This document shows positions 45,956-58,772 of a stretch of 64,000 bases of DNA, one piece after another (the stretch's first letter is position 1; each line of letters opens with the position of its first letter). The notes under the pieces are model-generated. The model was not told where the DNA came from, did not search any database, and saw only the letters and a list, made by a program, of their open reading frames with translations. A program made the translations under genes and the position numbers. Source of the stretch: Patescibacteria group bacterium (GTDB taxonomy: Bacteria; Patescibacteriota; Minisyncoccia; Phycocordibacterales; CAIRYW01); assembly GCA_040389185.1 (NCBI GenBank), contig JAZKAJ010000005.1, positions 19,887 through 83,886 of the forward strand. The letters are read 5' to 3'.

Positions 45956-46816
45956 ATGGAAGATTTTCTTTCTCTACATATAGCACGGCCCTATGTCTAC
46001 ACGATCCTTATTGTGGGACTCTGTGCTATTACATATGGATACACTACAATCTTGGATGAAAAAAGTAATATTGAAGTGAAACTTTTCAATACTAATATTG
46101 AACTCTCTCAAGCCCAAACCCAAAGCGCGTATTTTCAATCCCTCCTCGATGCAAAAGAAAATGAAAAATTAGCTCTCCAGGATACTGTCGAAGATTTCTC
46201 AAATCAGGTTGCAACACTCGAAAAGATCAGAGACACAGACAAGGAGCTTCTTCAAAAATACTCAAAAGTATATTTCTTGAATGAAAACTATACTCCGAAA
46301 GACATAGAGGAAATTTCTTCGATCTATCTTACTCCAAATTCTAAACCACTTGAGCTCGATGCCAATGTTCTCCCATTTTTGAAAAGAATGATCAGGGCAT
46401 CAATCAAAGCTAACAATCCCATCCAAGTTGTCTCGGCTTACAGATCATTTGGAACACAGGAAAATTTGAAGACCGCATACAAAGCAACCTTCGGTTCTGG
46501 CGCAAATGCGTTTTCTGCAGACCAAGGATATTCCGAACACCAACTCGGTACAACAGTTGATCTTACAACACCTATTCTTCAAAATACTTTCGTGTCTTTT
46601 GAGGACACACCTGCGTTCAAATGGTTAGAAGACCATGCGCAAGAATATGGATTTACACTCTCCTACCCAAAGGGTAATAAATATTATGTCTATGAACCAT
46701 GGCATTGGAGATTTGTTGGAGTAGAGCTTGCAACAAAACTTCACGATGAGAATATACACTTTTATGATATGGATCAAAGAGAGATTGATACATATCTTCT
46801 GAAAATATTTGATTAA
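45956..46816 (+). CDS. D-alanyl-D-alanine carboxypeptidase family (VanY / peptidase M15B).
   Basis: 286-aa ORF with SAYRSFGTQ, SEHQLGTTVDL and EPWHWRFVG motifs, plus an N-terminal transmembrane anchor. Confidence 0.75.
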   Translation: MEDFLSLHIARPYVYTILIVGLCAITYGYTTILDEKSNIEVKLFNTNIELSQAQTQSAYFQSLLDAKENEKLALQDTVEDFSNQVATLEKIRDTDKELLQKYSKVYFLNENYTPKDIEEISSIYLTPNSKPLELDANVLPFLKRMIRASIKANNPIQVVSAYRSFGTQENLKTAYKATFGSGANAFSADQGYSEHQLGTTVDLTTPILQNTFVSFEDTPAFKWLEDHAQEYGFTLSYPKGNKYYVYEPWHWRFVGVELATKLHDENIHFYDMDQREIDTYLLKIFD

Positions 46817-46875
46817 AGCCTATTGAGTTCTCTCAATAAGTTGAGTATTTTACGCATATAATCTATAATCCAAAC

Positions 46876-47592
46876 ATGATACTACTTATTAGTTTGGGAG
46901 CAAGTGCCGCCACCTATTTAGGAGGGCTGATTGCTTTACGATTCAAAGACCGACTCCATCTCATTTTAGGGTTTTCTGCAGGAGCAGTTATTGGCGTTGC
47001 ATTCTTTGACCTTATGCCTGAGGCACTTGGGTTGACATCACAATATTTCACCACTCCAACTACCCTCTCAATTGTTGCGCTCGGATTTATTTCGTACATG
47101 ATTCTTGATCGATCAATAGCTCTGCATAGTCATACCGATGAAGACAGTTGCAACAAGCATCGAAGTAATATCGGTGCAGGCAGTCTTTCAATACATAGCT
47201 TTCTTGATGGAGTGGCTATTGGAGTCGCATTTCAGGTTGGGACCGCAGTTGGAACTATTGTTGCAGTTGCAGTGCTTGTGCATGATTTTTCTGATGGAAT
47301 GAATACAGTCAACATGATCCTAAAAAATAACGGCGACAGAATGAGAGCACTCAAATGGCTAAGTATTGATGCGATAGCTCCAATACTTGGCGTTATCTCC
47401 ACTCTTTTTTTTACTCTCGAAGAAAGTGTACTTGGAATCATTCTCGCCCTATTCTCTGGATTCTTTCTCTATATTGGAGCAAGCGATCTATTACCAGAAA
47501 GCCACCACGGACACAGTACAATGTGGACTACGGTAGCAACAGTAGTTGGAACATCAATACTTTTTGTTGCTATAAAATTGGCAGGAATATAG
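46876..47592 (+). CDS. zupT: ZIP family metal transporter (ZupT-like).
   Basis: 238-aa ORF with about 8 transmembrane helices, HDFSDG and HHGH motifs. Confidence 0.85.
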   Translation: MILLISLGASAATYLGGLIALRFKDRLHLILGFSAGAVIGVAFFDLMPEALGLTSQYFTTPTTLSIVALGFISYMILDRSIALHSHTDEDSCNKHRSNIGAGSLSIHSFLDGVAIGVAFQVGTAVGTIVAVAVLVHDFSDGMNTVNMILKNNGDRMRALKWLSIDAIAPILGVISTLFFTLEESVLGIILALFSGFFLYIGASDLLPESHHGHSTMWTTVATVVGTSILFVAIKLAGI

Positions 47593-47711: not shown

Positions 47712-47912
47712 CTACTTCGTATCACAACACTTGCAATTTGCTTTGTGTGTGAAAATCTCATAGATCGCTGAAAGCCCTACGAGGACGTAAATCACTCGAG
47801 AAACGACAGCATCCATACCGCCAAAAAGCTGTCCAACATCCCAACCTGCAAGTCCTACAAGAAGCCAGTTAAGGCCTCCAATGACAAGAAGGATAAAAGT
47901 TAATTTGTGCAT
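47712..47912 (-). CDS. DUF378 family small membrane protein.
   Basis: 66-aa ORF whose sequence FILLVIGGLNWLLVGLAGWDVGQLFGG matches the DUF378 pattern. Confidence 0.65.
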   Translation of the reverse strand: MHKLTFILLVIGGLNWLLVGLAGWDVGQLFGGMDAVVSRVIYVLVGLSAIYEIFTHKANCKCCDTK

Positions 47913-48027
47913 AAATAAAAAAATAATTGTTTCTAAATCGACCCTACCTTGTACTACATTATACCCTCAATTTAAAAATCATTTTCTACTTATCAACATA
48001 CACAAACACTGATACAATGTAGTACAC

Positions 48028-48195
48028 ATGGGATCAAAACCACTTATTTGGATAGGAATGTTTATTGGTGGCACCGTCGGGGGATTCGTCCCGATGCTCT
48101 GGGGTGATAGTAGCTTTTCTTTCTCTGGGATCTTTTTTAATGCAGTGGGCGCAATAATTGGAATATATGTTGCTTATAGAATATCAGACAATTAG
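48028..48195 (+). CDS. Small membrane protein (55 aa).
   Basis: The translation is MGSKPLIWIGMFIGGTVGGFVPMLWGDSSFSFSGIFFNAVGAIIGIYVAYRISDN. Too short for the ORF track. Confidence 0.35.
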   Translation: MGSKPLIWIGMFIGGTVGGFVPMLWGDSSFSFSGIFFNAVGAIIGIYVAYRISDN

Positions 48196-48210
48196 TGATT
48201 AAATTAATAT

Positions 48211-48573
48211 ATGCACAAAATAAACAAATTCTTTTTTAGTCTAAAATGCGCAACAAAGGGAATTAAAACAGTTCTAAAAGAAGAACAGAATTTTCAAATA
48301 GAGATTATTATTGCGCTATTCACAATATTACTTGGTATCTTTTTGAATATAAGCAACATAGAAATGGCAATCATTATTATTTCTATAATCATTGTTCTAA
48401 CGGCAGAAATAGTAAATACCGCAATTGAAGATCTTTGTGACAAAATAGAACCTCATCATGACAGTATTATAGGAAAGATCAAAGATATTATGGCAGGCTT
48501 TGTACTTATTACATCAATTGGAACTGTGGTTGTAGGACTCATAATATTCCTTCCAAAGATATCAGTATTTTAA
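48211..48573 (+). CDS. dgkA: Diacylglycerol kinase family protein (DgkA / undecaprenol kinase-like).
   Basis: 120-aa three-helix ORF with an EIVNTAIE motif (compare ELxNSAIE in DgkA). Confidence 0.75.
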   Translation: MHKINKFFFSLKCATKGIKTVLKEEQNFQIEIIIALFTILLGIFLNISNIEMAIIIISIIIVLTAEIVNTAIEDLCDKIEPHHDSIIGKIKDIMAGFVLITSIGTVVVGLIIFLPKISVF

Positions 48574-48592
48574 TTCTGAATATAAAAGTTAT

Positions 48593-49540
48593 ATGAAATT
48601 ATTGGGCCATATTCTGAGGATAATAATCATGACAACAATTGTCGGCGCAATTCTCTATCATTTCAATACCCAATTTCAAACCGCCATTGATCAAAAGTAC
48701 GAGTGGCTCTTCCCTTGCAAAACAGCTATTACCTATTCAGTTGGCATTGTCGATCCAAAATTTGGTATTTCAACAGATCAATTTTTGAGTGCAATCAAGA
48801 TTGGAGAAAAAACGTGGGAAGATGCCTTAAATGGCAAGAAGCTCTTTGAATACGTACCCGAAGGCGGCAAAGTAAGCGTTAACTTAATTTACGACACTCG
48901 ACAATCTGCAACGGACAAATTAAAAAAACTTGGCTATGTCATAAATGACGACAAGGCAAGTTTCAATGACCTCAAAACAAAATATGATGCACTAAGCAAA
49001 TCATTCAATCAAACAAAAGCACAAATAACGAGCGATATTAATGACCTAAAACGAGATCAAGCTGCTTATGAAAAGGAAGTGGCTTATTGGAATAGCAAAG
49101 GTGGTGCGCCGAAAGAAGATTATGCAAAACTGCAGAAAGAAAAAAATGATTTAAACAACAGAGCAGACAGTATAAACCAAAGACAAGAGACGCTTAATCA
49201 ATCTGTTGACACTATCAATTCATTAGGTACGGTTTTAAATGAGCAGATCAGTACGCTTAATCTCGATGTAGACAAATATAATAATAACCAAGAGACTCTA
49301 GGTGATGAATTTGATCAGGGTGAGTACGTGCTTGACCAGAGTGGTCGAACTATCAATATCTATCAATTTGATAATATGGCAAAACTCGAACGAGTACTTA
49401 CCCATGAATTAGGCCACGCATTAGGACTTGAGCACAATGATGACCCAAAATCAGTGATGTACAAACTAAACCAAGGAACCACACTCACACTTTCAGCAGA
49501 AGATATTTCATCACTCAAAGCTGTTTGTCGCACCCTCTAA
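48593..49540 (+). CDS. Membrane-anchored zinc metalloprotease with a matrixin-like (M10, metzincin) HExxHxxGxxH motif.
   Basis: 315-aa ORF with an N-terminal transmembrane helix, a central coiled coil and C-terminal VLTHELGHALGLEHNDDPKSVMY. Confidence 0.7.
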   Translation: MKLLGHILRIIIMTTIVGAILYHFNTQFQTAIDQKYEWLFPCKTAITYSVGIVDPKFGISTDQFLSAIKIGEKTWEDALNGKKLFEYVPEGGKVSVNLIYDTRQSATDKLKKLGYVINDDKASFNDLKTKYDALSKSFNQTKAQITSDINDLKRDQAAYEKEVAYWNSKGGAPKEDYAKLQKEKNDLNNRADSINQRQETLNQSVDTINSLGTVLNEQISTLNLDVDKYNNNQETLGDEFDQGEYVLDQSGRTINIYQFDNMAKLERVLTHELGHALGLEHNDDPKSVMYKLNQGTTLTLSAEDISSLKAVCRTL

Positions 49541-49705
49541 AGTTTTATCTATTGAAAAGTTTGTCGAACAAACTTTTCTTGCTCTGCAATATAACCAATC
49601 TTAGAACATTGTTTTTATGCTCTATATACACAACAACTTAAATCTTACTTTGAAAAACAAGGTTATATTGCAGAGCGATAGATAAAATTTTCTAGGGTAA
49701 AAAAT

Positions 49706-50488
49706 CTAAACAATAAAAAAGTAGAACAACACAGCAATCAATATTCGATATACTCCGAATACAATAAAATCATGCTTCTTTACAAATGAGAGGAATCCTT
49801 TGATCGCAATTATTGCGACAATATAAGAAACAATAAATCCAACAAAGAGTGCCCCGAGATTGCCGCCATGAATAAGCGCGTCTTTGTTCTTTAGAATATC
49901 CAACCCTGTTGCTGCGCACATCGTAGGTACCGCAAGAAGAAATGAGAATTCTGCAATCGCCGTACGACTAATCCCCTGCATCATACCTCCCACAATTGTC
50001 GCTGCAGAACGAGATACACCAGGAACGAATGCAACACACTGACAGAGACCAATAATAAAAGATTGTTTTATAGAAATTGAATCACTTCCCTTCTCTACTT
50101 TCTTTTTATTATAAAGTTCAAAAATAATGAGAAGTATTCCCCCAATAAAAAGTGCCCAGAGTACAATTGATATGTCTCCTAGATATTCCTTTACTCGCTT
50201 GTATACCAAAAGTCCAATGACCGCGGTCGGCAGGAATCCAACAAAAAGTTTTTTTAAAATTTCAATATTAAAGAATGATTTAAAATAAAGAGTCACCACA
50301 GCCAGAATTGCTCCAAGCTGAATGATAATCTCAAAACTTTTTACAAAATCAGTTTGTTCAAGATGAAGAATTTTTGCACCCAAGATAAGATGTGCTGTAG
50401 AAGACACGGGCAGAAATTCTGTAATTCCTTCAATAATTCCCAAGATTGTTGCATCAAATATATTCATAGAATAGTAGTATAAAGTCAA
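49706..50488 (-). CDS. uppP: Undecaprenyl-diphosphate phosphatase (BacA/UppP).
   Basis: 260-aa ORF with the conserved N-terminal ILGIIEGITEFLPVSSTAHL and a polytopic membrane topology. Confidence 0.9.
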   Translation of the reverse strand: MTLYYYSMNIFDATILGIIEGITEFLPVSSTAHLILGAKILHLEQTDFVKSFEIIIQLGAILAVVTLYFKSFFNIEILKKLFVGFLPTAVIGLLVYKRVKEYLGDISIVLWALFIGGILLIIFELYNKKKVEKGSDSISIKQSFIIGLCQCVAFVPGVSRSAATIVGGMMQGISRTAIAEFSFLLAVPTMCAATGLDILKNKDALIHGGNLGALFVGFIVSYIVAIIAIKGFLSFVKKHDFIVFGVYRILIAVLFYFFIV

Positions 50489-50600
50489 AAGTCAAAAGTG
50501 ACAACAGCTGTTGATACCGAGAGGGAGAAAGCGAAAAGCTAAATGCACCGTAACACATGGACTTTATACTCCCTACTATGTACGATATACTAGAACCACA

Positions 50601-51875
50601 ATGGAACATTTATTTGTATCTCTTTTTCAAACCCATCTCGACACATTCAAGCATTTTGGATACTGGATAATATTACTCGTTACCTATATAGAATCAGTAC
50701 CACTTTTGGGAATGCTTATTCCAGGACAAACAATTATCATTCTCGCTGGGTTTATGGTGAAGCTTCATTTCTTTGGTTTTTGGATCACAATCGCAGTCAC
50801 AACGTTAGGTGCTGTGCTCGGTGATCTCACGGGCTTTTATCTTGGACATACATATGGTCACCATTTCACCGCTGCAGAAAAAAAATTTTATATCAAAAGA
50901 GAACAGTTCGAAAAGACCAAACATCTTATCGCTACACACCCATTCAAAGCAATCTTCTTTGGAAGACTTCATTCATTAACACGGACTCTCACACCGTTTG
51001 CTGGGGGTGCAAGCAACATAAGCCTCAGTAAATTTCTTTCTATAGATATTCTCTCATCTTTTGTTTGGGCCTTCCTTTCAATACTTATCGGATTTATATT
51101 TGGCAAAAGTTTTGAAAAGGCATCAGCATTTCTGGGCAGCTTTATTCTTGTTGCCACATTTATCACCGTTTGTATCATCTTAGCCGTAAATTATGCAAAA
51201 AAGAAAAACATAAAGCTCGCAAAGATTGATGTTTTTATGTTCATTACTTCAACCGTAACGATCTATTTATTTGGACTTATTGCTCGAGACCTGGTAACAG
51301 GACATCTATTTACTATTTTTGATCAACATATATACATGCTTCGACACATAATTGAAACTCCTCTTATGACAACAATCATGCTTATGTTCAGCACACTTGG
51401 TAACGCTCTCTTTATGACATCCCTCGCTCTGCTCTTCATACTCTTTCTTGTAAGCAAAAAACAATACAGACACGCACTGCTTTCTTCATCAATCTTGATT
51501 GCAGGACTCGGAGCTGTTGAATTCTTAAAGATACATTATGCACGAATCAGACCCCTTGGAATCATAAATGTGGATGGTAATAGCTTCCCGAGCGGACACA
51601 TGGCAATGTCAATGATGCTTGCAATTCTCGTCTCTTATATAAGTCTCCGGCACTTGAAACCAATTATAAAGAGAAGAGCTCTTTTGACCCTTGTTTACAC
51701 AACATCGCTTGTAATTGGCTTTTCGAGGATATATCTTGGGGTTCACTGGGCATCGGATGTCTTGGCAGGACTTCTCTTTGGGATATTCTTCGCAACATTT
51801 GGTATAGTGGTATTTAATGGAATTTCGTTTATTATAAGTGTAGGCAAAAAGAAGCATGAGATACCATTACCTTAA
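50601..51875 (+). CDS. Fusion protein: DedA (SNARE-associated/TVP38) membrane domain plus a PAP2-superfamily phosphatase domain.
   Basis: The N-terminal half is DedA-like (GMLIPGQTIIILAGF...). The C-terminal half carries PAP2 motifs KIHYARIRP, PSGH and SRIYLGVHWASD. Start taken at ATG 50601 within ORF 50511-51875. Confidence 0.78.
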   Translation: MEHLFVSLFQTHLDTFKHFGYWIILLVTYIESVPLLGMLIPGQTIIILAGFMVKLHFFGFWITIAVTTLGAVLGDLTGFYLGHTYGHHFTAAEKKFYIKREQFEKTKHLIATHPFKAIFFGRLHSLTRTLTPFAGGASNISLSKFLSIDILSSFVWAFLSILIGFIFGKSFEKASAFLGSFILVATFITVCIILAVNYAKKKNIKLAKIDVFMFITSTVTIYLFGLIARDLVTGHLFTIFDQHIYMLRHIIETPLMTTIMLMFSTLGNALFMTSLALLFILFLVSKKQYRHALLSSSILIAGLGAVEFLKIHYARIRPLGIINVDGNSFPSGHMAMSMMLAILVSYISLRHLKPIIKRRALLTLVYTTSLVIGFSRIYLGVHWASDVLAGLLFGIFFATFGIVVFNGISFIISVGKKKHEIPLP

Positions 51876-51929
51876 AAAGGTAAATCTCAATAAACAAACA
51901 CCAAATTACAAACAAAATACAATAACAAT

Positions 51930-53174
51930 ATGAAAAAAGATTATATTCCATCAAAGAAAATATTAGAAAACTACGCAAAGGTTCTTGTAAACTTTGCACT
52001 TAATAGTGGAAAAGGAGTTCAGAAAGGAGAAACGGTATATCTCACAGTAAACGAATATGCACGACCAATGTATGTCGAGCTCTACAAAGCGATCATCAAG
52101 CGAGGTGGTAATGTTATCACAAACTACATTCCAGATGACAAAGAAACATATGACAAAGCAAATTCGAATGTCTCTCGGCTCTTCTATGAACTCGCAAGCG
52201 ACACACAGCTCTCCTACTTCCCTTCTAAATATATGAAAGGCCTTATCGATGAGATCGATCACTCGATCTACATCATTTCTGATACCAACAAACATATCTT
52301 GAAAGGTATTGATCCAAAGAAAATTATGGCGCGAGGCAAGGCATTTAAACCATATATGGATTGGAGAAACCACAAGGAGAATCAAGGCAAGTTCACCTGG
52401 ACTCTTGCTCTTTATGGAACACCTGCAATGGCCAAGGAAGCAAAAATGAGTCTCAAAGAATATTGGGCACAAATCATCAAGGCATGTTTTCTTGATAAAA
52501 AAGATCCAATTGCAGAATGGAAAAAAACATACAAATACATCGACAAAGCTGAGAACAAATTAAATTCAATGCCGATTGAAAAACTTCACGTCAAAGGGCC
52601 TGATGCGGATCTCTGGGTACATCTCGGCGAAAAGAAAAAATGGAAAAGTGGAAGCGGACGAAACATTCCATCATTTGAGATCTTTACTTCTCCAGACTGG
52701 AGAGGAACTAACGGATGGATTAGATTCTCAGAACCTCTCTACCGATATGGCAATCTCATCACAGGCATCGAACTTTGGTTTAAAGACGGAAAGGTTATAA
52801 AGAGTAAAGCAACACAAAACGAAAAGGTTTTGAAACAAATGATTGCAACAGAGAATGCAGACAAGATCGGCGAATACTCACTCACAGATACGAGGTTCTC
52901 TCGGATCACAAAGTTCATGGCAGAAACCCTCTTTGATGAAAACGTAGGTGGCAAATACGGCAACACTCACCTTGCACTCGGTAACGCATACCATGACTGC
53001 TATACAGGTGATGCATCACAAATGACTACAGAAGATTGGGAGGAGCTAGGATTTAATTCTTCATCAGTTCACACAGACATCGTCTCCACAACACCTCGAA
53101 CAGTAACTGCATATATGAAAGATGGAACAAGTGAAGTGATCTATAAGGATGGATATTTTACTTTCTTGAAATAA
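51930..53174 (+). CDS. ampS: Aminopeptidase, M29 family (AmpS/PepS/aminopeptidase T-like).
   Basis: 414-aa ORF with an N-terminal YAKVLVNFALNSGKGVQKGETVYLT segment and overall M29 length. Confidence 0.82.
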   Translation: MKKDYIPSKKILENYAKVLVNFALNSGKGVQKGETVYLTVNEYARPMYVELYKAIIKRGGNVITNYIPDDKETYDKANSNVSRLFYELASDTQLSYFPSKYMKGLIDEIDHSIYIISDTNKHILKGIDPKKIMARGKAFKPYMDWRNHKENQGKFTWTLALYGTPAMAKEAKMSLKEYWAQIIKACFLDKKDPIAEWKKTYKYIDKAENKLNSMPIEKLHVKGPDADLWVHLGEKKKWKSGSGRNIPSFEIFTSPDWRGTNGWIRFSEPLYRYGNLITGIELWFKDGKVIKSKATQNEKVLKQMIATENADKIGEYSLTDTRFSRITKFMAETLFDENVGGKYGNTHLALGNAYHDCYTGDASQMTTEDWEELGFNSSSVHTDIVSTTPRTVTAYMKDGTSEVIYKDGYFTFLK

Positions 53175-57636: not shown

Positions 57637-58182
57637 ATGGCTCAGGAAATAGAAACAAAAGTATTAGATATTCACAAAGATCATATCATTTCAAAGTTAA
57701 AAGATCTGGGAGCAAAAGAAAAAGGAGCAAGGACCAAACTTACTGTCGATTGGTTTAGAAAAATAGGTATTACTGAAGGCCAAGATCCGTGGTATCTCAG
57801 AATTCGATCTTACGACGACAATAAACACGAGGTGACATGGAAAGCAAAATCAGTTATAGAGGGCAATATCAGAAAGCATAAAGAAATTAATTTTATGATC
57901 GAAGAGCCAAAACAACTCAAGGATTTATTTGAAGAGATCGAACTTGAAAATTATGCCCACCAAGAAAAATATCGCACGTCTTTTACTCTTAAAGACTGGC
58001 AATTTGATATAGACGAATATCCAGGCATGCCTGCATTTATTGAGATTGAAGGTCAAAGTGAAGAACACATAAACGAGGCGATGGAACTACTTGATATTAA
58101 AGATAACAAAACTTGGACAGACGGTGAAAGAACTTTGGTTCAGGATGTTTATGGTCTTGATTGGTACAAAATGAAATTCTAA
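57637..58182 (+). CDS. CYTH domain protein (triphosphate tunnel metalloenzyme; CyaB/ThTPase-like).
   Basis: 181-aa ORF with an N-terminal EIETKVL (ExExK) motif and length typical of CYTH. Confidence 0.7.
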   Translation: MAQEIETKVLDIHKDHIISKLKDLGAKEKGARTKLTVDWFRKIGITEGQDPWYLRIRSYDDNKHEVTWKAKSVIEGNIRKHKEINFMIEEPKQLKDLFEEIELENYAHQEKYRTSFTLKDWQFDIDEYPGMPAFIEIEGQSEEHINEAMELLDIKDNKTWTDGERTLVQDVYGLDWYKMKF

Positions 58183-58772
58183 TGAATTACCTCGATCCAA
58201 AATTTATCATTGAAGCATTGGGACTTGTGGGAATATTTTCTCTTATATTTGCTGAGTCAGGGCTTTTCTTTGGATTCTTTCTTCCTGGGGACACACTTCT
58301 CTTTACCGCGGGACTGCTCGCCTCACAAAATCTCTTATCTCTCCCTCCTCTCCTTGTTGGAGGAATCTTGTTTGCAATTCTCGGAGATAATGTGGGATAT
58401 TTGTTTGGCAAAAAGATAGGACCGAAACTATTTACTAGAGAACACTCTTTTTTTTGGAACAAAGATCACATAGAAAAGTCACATAAATTCTTTGAAAAAT
58501 ACGGTAAAAAGGCGATCATTCTCGCACGATTTATGCCTATCGTGCGAACATTTACCCCAATCCTTGCCGGAGTTGGAACTATGGAATATAAGACATTTCT
58601 TCGATACAATATTGTAGGAGGAATATTATGGGTTTCTGGACTTACTTTGTGTGGATATTTCTTTGGCAAAATAATACCGGATCCAGATAAATACTTACTC
58701 CCTATCATATTACTCATCACAATAGTTTCTCTACTTCCTGCATTAAAAGAATTTATAAATAGAAAGAAATAA
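58182..58772 (+). CDS. DedA family membrane protein.
   Basis: The ATG at 58182 overlaps the upstream stop (TAATG). FAESGLFFGFFLPGDTLLFTAGLLA is the DedA core. Confidence 0.82.
   Translation: MNYLDPKFIIEALGLVGIFSLIFAESGLFFGFFLPGDTLLFTAGLLASQNLLSLPPLLVGGILFAILGDNVGYLFGKKIGPKLFTREHSFFWNKDHIEKSHKFFEKYGKKAIILARFMPIVRTFTPILAGVGTMEYKTFLRYNIVGGILWVSGLTLCGYFFGKIIPDPDKYLLPIILLITIVSLLPALKEFINRKK

Follow-up and report, generated by a model that had tools for sequence, protein, structure and literature searches.

Organization of the locus

The region of interest lies within a 64,000-nucleotide stretch of patescibacterial DNA (the window) and starts with dgkA (48211–48573, plus strand), which encodes a 120-aa membrane lipid kinase of the DgkA family (PF01219, E 6e-32). 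It is followed on the same strand by a gene for a 315-aa M10/matrixin-like zinc metalloprotease (48593–49540; PF00413, E 1.8e-11) and, on the minus strand, by uppP/bacA (49706–50467), coding for an undecaprenyl-diphosphate phosphatase of 253 aa (PF02673, E 2.5e-72). An intergenic region of 133 bp (50468–50600) separates uppP from the divergently transcribed gene of a 424-aa DedA-PAP2 fusion protein (50601–51875, plus strand; PF09335 followed by PF01569), downstream of which genes for M29 and M24 aminopeptidases are located. A second, stand-alone DedA gene (58182–58772, plus strand, 196 aa), recognized by its open reading frame and the residues E, PGD, R and R, is found 6 kb downstream of the fusion gene. 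The earlier note on this DNA had described dgkA, uppP and the fusion gene as a cluster of lipid-carrier genes. All three are present, but they are distributed over two strands and are not contiguous, since the M10-type protease gene sits between dgkA and uppP. The protease itself is a membrane-anchored protein with a coiled-coil middle part and the motif HELGHALGLEH. No connection between it and the lipid carrier cycle is known, and its gene is kept beside uppP in four related loci (L001, L004, L005, and L006).

The uppP reading frame (49706–50488, minus strand) is open up to a TTG at 50488, with the likely ATG start leading to the 253-aa protein that is also called in public records. This protein matches PF02673 with 244 bits and passes the NCBIfam equivalog NF001390 (271.4 bits, cut-off 260) as well as TIGR00753 (223.7 bits, cut-off 217.5). 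DgkA matches the full PF01219 profile (109.9 bits), with no match among the NCBIfam models, and among solved structures it comes closest to diacylglycerol kinases of the E. coli type (E 5e-12). As DgkA of B. subtilis is treated as an undecaprenol kinase (PMC5723303), the substrate of the homolog in the window may, by analogy, be undecaprenol.

A consensus scan of the region between uppP and the fusion gene revealed a promoter-like TTTATA-N17-TATACT sequence upstream of the fusion gene (50563–50591) and two promoter-like sites on the minus strand (50504–50476 and 50495–50468) pointing toward uppP, all of which might be candidate promoters. Two related loci (L004 and L005) have a comparable TTTATAC...TATACTA stretch upstream of the fusion gene, this short, semi-conserved stretch being the only conservation in the intergenic alignment. 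Promoter-like sites are overall no more numerous than in shuffled sequence and no intrinsic terminators were found in 47900–52000.

The fusion is encoded as a single polypeptide

The earlier note had read DedA and PAP2 domains in one polypeptide and had suggested to check for a merging of two frames. The open reading frame 50601–51875 turned out to be uninterrupted, with neither a stop nor a frame change between the two halves and each domain scoring above its Pfam gathering threshold. Upstream, the frame is open from a TTG at 50511 (50511–51875, plus strand); the resulting 454-aa reading was rejected in favor of the ATG at 50601 (MEHLF...) as the real start, given that the public record and the relatives comprise 422–428 aa and begin with MEHLF. 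An identical 424-aa protein from a metagenome-assembled genome is on record at NCBI under the name [quoted passage not shown].

That two adjacent genes were artefactually joined, whether through a missed stop codon or through a frameshift introduced during sequencing or assembly, appears vanishingly improbable. Besides the intact frame, the identical protein is encoded by three independently assembled contigs, and homologs with identities between 86% and about 25% occur as single open reading frames with both domains in many assemblies and phyla. The one-piece form was encountered in dozens of independent assemblies: both Pfam domains are present in about 95 of the 120 best hit clusters, and the fetched loci yielded 52 full-length fusion open reading frames from Patescibacteria, Actinomycetota, Proteobacteria, Gemmatimonadales, and others. 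Moreover, the two halves are connected by a short, Lys-rich linker (residues 196–208), predicted to be cytoplasmic, which fits the topology of both. With no point found in its favor, the artefact explanation was considered refuted.

The PAP2 half

The C-terminal half (residues 206–424; 51216–51875, plus strand) contains six TM helices and belongs to the PAP2 family (PF01569, 60.7 bits, cut-off 27.2). The catalytic motifs named in the earlier note are intact, namely C1 (K310-x6-R317-P318; 51528–51554), C2 (P330-S331-G332-H333; 51588–51599), and C3 (S375-R376-x5-H382-x3-D386; 51723–51758), all on the plus strand, so that a defective PAP2 half is excluded. Their residues are invariant or at least 90% conserved among 51 aligned homologs. 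A phmmer search matched residues 218–397 to PgpB/YodM of B. subtilis (5jki; E 5e-11, 22% identity), with the PAP2 half being colinear with this protein from its first helix, and Foldseek confirmed the six-helix PAP2 fold (5jki: E 3.4e-5, target TM-score 0.79 over 204 columns), LpxE (6ebu) being the second-ranking structure with a target TM-score of 0.72.

The AlphaFold2 model of the fusion (mean pLDDT 86.7) shows helices that suit a DedA domain followed by a six-helix PAP2 domain. Lys and Arg residues in the predicted loops were counted by hand from the fusion sequence and the AlphaFold2 helices, giving 23 inside and 9 outside, with 4 of the latter 9 being residues of the catalytic motifs. [quoted passage not shown] Accordingly, the active site of the PAP2 half is predicted to face the cell exterior and the linker between the two domains to be cytoplasmic.

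The fusion finds its best NCBIfam matches, all below threshold, in the models of two undecaprenyl-diphosphatases, SepP and YbjG, and of the flippase UptA. The cut-offs of the PAP2-type undecaprenyl-diphosphatase equivalogs were clearly missed, with 48 bits for SepP (cut-off 250), 32 for YbjG (cut-off 229), and 30 for PgpB (cut-off 261). The closest solved relative, B. subtilis PgpB, is primarily a phosphatidylglycerol phosphate (PGP) phosphatase. Undecaprenyl pyrophosphate (UPP) phosphatase activity was also described for this enzyme (PMC5723303). The fusion shares the six-helix PAP2 fold, C1 to C3, and a predicted extracytoplasmic site with B. subtilis PgpB/YodM and with other membrane PAP2 phosphatases of C55-PP (BcrC, E. 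coli PgpB, YbjG, and SepP), and differs from such free-standing phosphatases in being tethered to a DedA domain.

The DedA half and the stand-alone DedA

The N-terminal half (residues 1–205; 50601–51215, plus strand) is a member of the DedA/VTT family (PF09335, 66.8 bits over residues 40–164, cut-off 33.9) and was aligned to E. coli YqjA by BLASTP with an E-value of 2e-15 and 23% identity. No DedA structure was matched by this half in sequence or fold searches of the PDB; the AlphaFold2 helices (13–32/42–54, 60–89, 100–112, 114–123/131–137, 142–177, and 180–201; pLDDT mostly 75–96) are, at the level of secondary structure, compatible with the two hairpins and three TM helices published for YqjA. 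In YqjA and YghB, the residues E39, D51, R130, and R136 are essential, with D51A abolishing the function of YqjA and the equivalents of R130 and R136 being thought to bind the phosphate of undecaprenyl phosphate. Three of these are retained in the fusion, namely E31 (50691–50693) for E39, R122 (50964–50966) for R130, and R128 (50982–50984) for R136, whereas the position of D51 is occupied by Q43 (50727–50729), so the DedA half lacks one of the four residues that characterize COG0586 flippases.

The 23 fetched fusion open reading frames of the Patescibacteria type have Q, H or M here. An acidic residue was counted at this position in only 4 of the 69 fusions and 5 of the 51 stand-alone proteins that are among the 150 nearest representatives. 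The loss of the Asp is not peculiar to fused DedA domains, since stand-alone relatives of about 200 aa, two of them confirmed as complete genes, share the Gln or His. Furthermore, the fusion fails to reach the equivalog cut-offs of UptA (NF052604/NF052605; 46 and 34 bits, cut-offs 250 and 300) and of the YghB type (NF008102; 53.5 bits, cut-off 236). Compared to YqjA/YghB and UptA of B. subtilis, it has the VTT/DedA domain, the Glu, and both Arg residues in common, with predicted helices compatible with two re-entrant hairpins plus three TM helices, but carries Gln43 and an attached phosphatase.

The closer counterpart of these flippases is the stand-alone DedA of the window, which has all four canonical residues and scores 160 bits with NF008102, compared to 53 bits for the DedA half, to which it is 27% identical. 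In L001, L005, L006, and L010, the gene occupies the corresponding position. Judged by these features, the stand-alone protein is more likely than the fusion to be the housekeeping flippase of the UptA/YghB type in this genome.

One quite speculative reading of these data, which we consider rather improbable, is that the DedA half belongs to a distinct subgroup, PAP2-fused or free, in which the essential proton-binding Asp (D51 of YqjA) has given way to Gln or His, with the Glu and both Arg residues retained, and which would act as a proton-uncoupled conduit for polyprenyl phosphates. Instead of being a flippase driven by the proton motive force, such a conduit would be fed with undecaprenyl phosphate (C55-P) directly by the attached or a partner phosphatase. 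This would explain both why a second, canonical DedA is kept in these genomes and why fusions like PA4011 of P. aeruginosa (see below) do not replace canonical flippases.

Conservation of the neighborhood

In relatives, the locus is part of a syntenic block of the order Zip-(dgkA)-M10-uppP-fusion-M29-M24-metK. Relatives down to 57% identity retain uppP and the fusion gene as a divergent pair; at 45% identity, they lie two genes apart. The three-gene neighborhood is confined to this clade of Patescibacteria: in 44 species-representative fusion loci outside the first set of relatives, uppP was found within 8 kb of the fusion gene in only two and dgkA in only one, and the cluster was consequently dismissed as a general trait of DedA-PAP2 fusions.

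These counts raise the possibility that the neighborhood is not a functional unit, but reflects the gene order of a lineage with a small, compact genome, in which DgkA might be a diacylglycerol kinase like its nearest solved structures. In line with this, the genes lie on two strands, are interrupted by the M10 gene, and are followed by M29 and M24 genes; the whole block from Zip to metK is syntenic in relatives despite the unrelated functions of Zip, M10, M29, M24, and MetK; and dgkA is absent from the block in L006 and L010. On the other hand, the uppP-fusion pairing outlasts changes in the neighboring genes (L005 has an inserted NUDIX gene, L006 two inserted open reading frames) and has arisen independently in L026, a MAG of the Pseudonocardiaceae. 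Synteny of dedA and uppP is also reported elsewhere, and it is unlikely that three of the few carrier-cycle genes of a small genome would occur among five genes by chance. Taken together, we regard a mere lineage-specific gene order as a serious contender that is nevertheless on the doubtful side.

Proposed role and relation to known fusions

The interpretation we lean towards, with moderate confidence, is that the fusion is a bifunctional inner-membrane protein coupling dephosphorylation of undecaprenyl pyrophosphate (C55-PP) to the re-import of C55-P in carrier recycling. It has an N-terminal DedA domain of the COG0586-like lipid-transporter type and, at its C-terminus, a six-helix domain of the PAP2 lipid phosphate phosphatases. 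In a first step, the PAP2 half would dephosphorylate undecaprenyl pyrophosphate released outside the cell, and in a second step the attached DedA half would return undecaprenyl phosphate to the inner leaflet. The protein would act in this Taylorbacteria-like member of the Patescibacteria beside the divergently encoded UppP and the nearby DgkA-family kinase. With a canonical UppP and a canonical stand-alone DedA also encoded in the genome, it would probably constitute an accessory or parallel route.

The fusion might instead serve a lipid other than the peptidoglycan carrier, such as PGP, phosphatidic acid (PA) or another polyprenyl or lipid phosphate, with the DedA half, devoid of the proton-binding Asp, being an uncoupled scramblase-like or lipid-binding module for the remodeling of membrane lipids and UppP together with the stand-alone DedA performing the actual recycling of C55-P. 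The structural proximity of the PAP2 half to a PGP phosphatase, followed by LpxE, would fit such a role, as would the replacement of the essential D51 by Q43 and the remoteness of the DedA half from the YghB/YqjA/UptA models (53 bits, compared to 160 bits for the stand-alone paralog). Also, some DedA proteins, for example PetA, are reported to move phospholipids. The only DedA-PAP2 fusion tested genetically, PA4011 of P. aeruginosa (437 aa), could not replace the C55-P flippase PA4029 and did not act as a C55-P flippase in this organism, for which the authors suggest "phosphoregulation or membrane lipid remodeling" (mBio 2026, PMC12893004). PA4011 resembles the fusion described here in its two-domain architecture and length and is distant in sequence, the fetched proteobacterial fusions being about 24–27% identical to the fusion of the window. 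Several observations speak against a different lipid, however: R122 and R128, the presumed ligands of the undecaprenyl phosphate, and E31 are conserved, the top NCBIfam matches of the PAP2 half are undecaprenyl-diphosphatases, albeit sub-threshold, and UPP phosphatase activity was described for B. subtilis PgpB/YodM itself. In addition, the clade has preserved the divergent arrangement with uppP, which is also seen in an actinobacterium, and some relatives (e.g., P0091) are fused to a GtrA domain. The GtrA family is implicated in polyprenyl-linked sugar transport. Overall, a role with another lipid appears rather unlikely. Still, Gln43, the canonical second DedA, and the PA4011 result temper the coupling of C55-PP dephosphorylation and C55-P re-import as a reading of the fusion in the window.

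The earlier note had seen in the fusion direct genetic support for undecaprenyl-phosphate flipping by DedA proteins. While the coupling of the two steps is plausible, the support is not new: DedA-PAP2 fusions were used as genomic support for this activity by Roney and Rudner (bioRxiv 10.1101/2022.02.03.479048; Nature 2023), Sit et al. (bioRxiv 10.1101/2022.02.04.479082), and Todor et al. (mBio 2023), and dedA-uppP synteny was used likewise. The fusion of the window is an ordinary member of this described and annotated class, for which the argument was published in 2022–2023. It agrees with the published fusions in domain order (N-terminal PF09335, C-terminal PF01569) and in the proposed logic of C55-PP dephosphorylation followed by C55-P flipping, with no difference in kind. 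It is short (424 aa) and does not contain the extra LssY_C domain of many proteobacterial versions, and its clade is set apart by the Gln, His or Met at the position of YqjA-D51, of which no mention was found in the accessible parts of those papers.

As a discovery the fusion carries little weight, since the fusion class, how frequent it is among dedA genes, the uppP synteny, and the flipping argument are all contained in the founding papers of the field. A small, well-behaved fusion from Patescibacteria could be suitable as a test protein for the coupling of both steps. Of possible use to the specialist are the observations that fusion-bearing Patescibacteria keep a canonical DedA too and that the DedA domains nearest to the fusion, whether fused or free, are mostly devoid of an equivalent of Asp51 of YqjA.

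Results and Discussion

On the forward strand an ORF (50511-51875) is open from a TTG codon; the ATG at 50601 was taken as its start, since a 424-aa protein of identical sequence has been recorded and relatives of 422-428 aa begin with MEHLF or MEHFF. The N-terminal half of this 424-aa protein matches the VTT/DedA family (PF09335, 66.8 bits) and the C-terminal half the PAP2 family (PF01569, 60.7 bits), with neither a stop codon nor a frame change in the DNA of the junction. Three contigs assembled independently of one another encode the identical protein, and both Pfam domains were found in one protein in about 95 of the 120 best hit clusters, reaching about 25% identity. A scan of species-representative genomes combined with six-frame ORF analysis yielded 52 single ORFs with both halves, from sources including Patescibacteria, Woesearchaeota-labelled MAGs, Actinomycetota, Beta- and Gammaproteobacteria, Gemmatimonadales and Peregrinibacteria. 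The intact frame, the three contigs and the 52 one-piece ORFs elsewhere rule out that the fusion is a frame-merging artefact. The single DedA-PAP2 polypeptide described in the earlier note is thus borne out, and the database search revealed its wide phyletic spread.

Some DedA-PAP2 proteins, about 600-704 aa long, carry extra domains, namely GtrA (PF04138, P0091), methyltransferase domains (P0048) or LssY_C (PF14067), as seen in P0091, P0048, P0055, P0071-P0078 and loci L028-L047; LssY_C is frequent in the long fusions of Proteobacteria. In L012 and L049, from MAGs with the label Candidatus Woesearchaeota (DPANN archaea), the fusion is full-length and shares 35-36% identity with the window protein; these could be mis-binned Patescibacteria contigs or the outcome of transfer between episymbiont lineages.

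The catalytic motifs of the PAP2 half (K310-x6-R317-P318, P330-S-G-H333 and S375-R376-x5-H382-x3-D386) are intact, as had been read from the sequence, each residue being invariant or at least 90% conserved in an alignment of 51 fusion proteins. Among solved proteins, B. subtilis PgpB/YodM (bsPgpB; 5jki) is nearest in sequence, aligning colinearly with residues 218-397 at E 5e-11. An AlphaFold2 model of the fusion (mean pLDDT 86.7, pTM 0.61) gave target TM-scores of 0.79 against 5jki and 0.72 against LpxE (6ebu). This likeness in sequence and fold does not tell the substrate of the PAP2 half: bsPgpB is chiefly a PGP phosphatase, with YodM also having UPP phosphatase activity (PMC5723303), and the matches of the fusion to the NCBIfam equivalogs SepP, YbjG and PgpB all lie far under their cut-offs.

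For E. coli YqjA, SCAM placed the C-terminus in the cytoplasm and V180, equivalent to about residue 172 of the fusion, in the periplasm. From these data the linker between the halves (residues 196-208, with five Lys) is predicted to be cytoplasmic, and the PAP2 half is predicted to start inside, like bsPgpB; no additional helix is required to join the two topologies. Based on the AlphaFold2 helices and the sequence, the predicted inside loops (90-116, 200-208, 286-290, 350-359 and 416-418) hold 23 K/R and the predicted outside loops nine, four of which belong to the catalytic motifs. The three PAP2 motifs all lie in predicted outside loops. At the level of prediction, the YqjA SCAM data, the modelled helices and the K/R counts thus support the outward-facing active site about which the earlier note had asked.

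The DedA half shares 23% identity with YqjA (E 2e-15). Its E31, R122 and R128 are the equivalents of E39, R130 and R136, three residues essential in YqjA, to which Todor et al. (mBio 2023) ascribe proton and phosphate binding in COG0586 DedA proteins. The fourth essential residue of YqjA, D51, whose replacement in D51A abolishes function, is in contrast Gln43 in the fusion. The 23 fetched fusion ORFs of the Patescibacteria type have Q, H or M at this position, most fetched proteobacterial fusions have S, A, V or T, and 12 fetched ORFs, mostly from Actinomycetota and Gemmatimonadales, have E. When the DedA half alone served as query, an exhaustive phmmer search returned 6547 relatives. Of the 150 nearest representatives, only 4 of 69 fusions and 5 of 51 stand-alone proteins (about 200 aa) have an acidic residue at the D51 position, and each class has Gln there more often than any other residue; two stand-alone genes of the Gln/His type were confirmed as complete. 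That the replacement is a consequence of fusion is ruled out, as stand-alone DedA proteins share it. The counts in fused and free proteins indicate that Gln/His at this position marks a DedA subgroup comprising both.

The fusion had been noted as part of a lipid-carrier gene cluster. ORFs, domain matches and the uninterrupted reading frame confirm its members: dgkA (48211-48573, +; 120 aa) matches the prokaryotic diacylglycerol kinase family over its full length (PF01219, E 6e-32), and the UppP/BacA ORF (49706-50488, -; PF02673, E 2.5e-72), with an ATG start in public gene calls giving 253 aa, scores above the cut-off of the undecaprenyl-diphosphate phosphatase equivalog in NCBIfam (NF001390: 271 vs 260 bits). 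However, the three genes lie on two strands and are not contiguous, being interrupted by an unrelated gene, absent from the earlier note, for a membrane-anchored M10/matrixin-like zinc protease (48593-49540, +; 315 aa).

The middle of this protease is a long coiled-coil segment with weak HmpF/SMC-like matches, and in every close relative its gene stays with uppP, lying between that gene and dgkA or Zip. Immediately upstream of dgkA lies a gene for a small DUF378 membrane protein (47712-47912, -; 66 aa), also found in L001 and L002 and absent from the called genes of L004. The window DNA is 97-98% identical to contig JAWVHB010003726.1 (L001), and at 46813-46921 lacks a 1.7-kb segment (L001 4577-6320) that lies between the VanY and Zip genes and bears yibE_F- and fur-like genes. 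In the more distant relatives L004 and L005, fur also occupies this position. The difference resembles a deletion, at strain level, of a metal regulator beside a zinc transporter.

uppP and the fusion gene are divergent, with 133 bp between them, and a promoter-like TTTATA-N17-TATACT, partly conserved in L004 and L005, precedes the fusion gene. The divergent pair is kept in relatives at 86%, 63% and 57% identity, and at 45% its members are two genes apart. Among the close-relative loci, dgkA is near the fusion only in L001, L002, L004 and L005; Zip, the M10 protease, M29 and M24 peptidases and metK are also kept around the locus in the same relatives, and the locus is a block of general synteny in a compact genome. 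No such gene link was seen at the fusion loci L007 (34% identity) and L008 (26%). In 44 further loci (fetched flanks of up to 8 kb), uppP was near the fusion twice (L010, L026) and dgkA once (L016). In L026 (861-3887), a Pseudonocardiaceae MAG, uppP adjoins the fusion, again divergently. This fusion has a canonical PGE motif, and its arrangement with uppP is that of the window, in an unrelated phylum. Given the close relatives and the two further loci, the uppP–fusion pairing is probably meaningful but lineage-restricted; the three-gene cluster is no general property of the fusions.

The class of DedA-PAP2 fusions is already known. NCBI names the identical sequence 'bifunctional DedA family/phosphatase PAP2 family protein', Todor et al. 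(mBio 2023) list PAP2 fusions within COG0586, and Sit et al. (bioRxiv 10.1101/2022.02.04.479082) report occasional PAP2 fusions of both DedA and DUF368 proteins. Roney and Rudner (bioRxiv 10.1101/2022.02.03.479048) describe dedA adjoining uppP elsewhere, and present this adjacency together with DedA-PAP2 fusions as support for B. subtilis UptA as transporter of undecaprenyl phosphate (UndP, C55-P). The suggestion that the fusion lends the flippase hypothesis new genetic support does not hold, as the same argument has been in the literature since 2022. P. aeruginosa PA4011, which has the same architecture, neither rescued nor aggravated the loss of the flippase PA4029 (2026, PMC12893004); a biochemical test of a DedA-PAP2 fusion was not found in the literature searched. 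With moderate confidence, we infer that coupled C55-PP dephosphorylation and C55-P re-import, as proposed in the earlier note, is the most likely mechanism.

The window contains a second, stand-alone DedA of 196 aa (58182-58772, +), in which E, PGD, R and R are all canonical. It shares 27% identity with the fused DedA half and is by far the nearer of the two to the E. coli YghB/YqjA type, scoring 160 bits with the model of that type vs 53 bits for the fused half. Its gene, flanked by a CYTH-domain gene and mscL, has kept this relative position in L001, L005, L006 and L010. Judged by these features, it is a better candidate than the fusion for the housekeeping UndP flippase. What is mildly new here is solely that this DedA subgroup has Gln/His in place of the essential Asp and that a canonical DedA paralogue is retained beside it; in view of both, the fused DedA half may differ from a standard proton-driven flippase.
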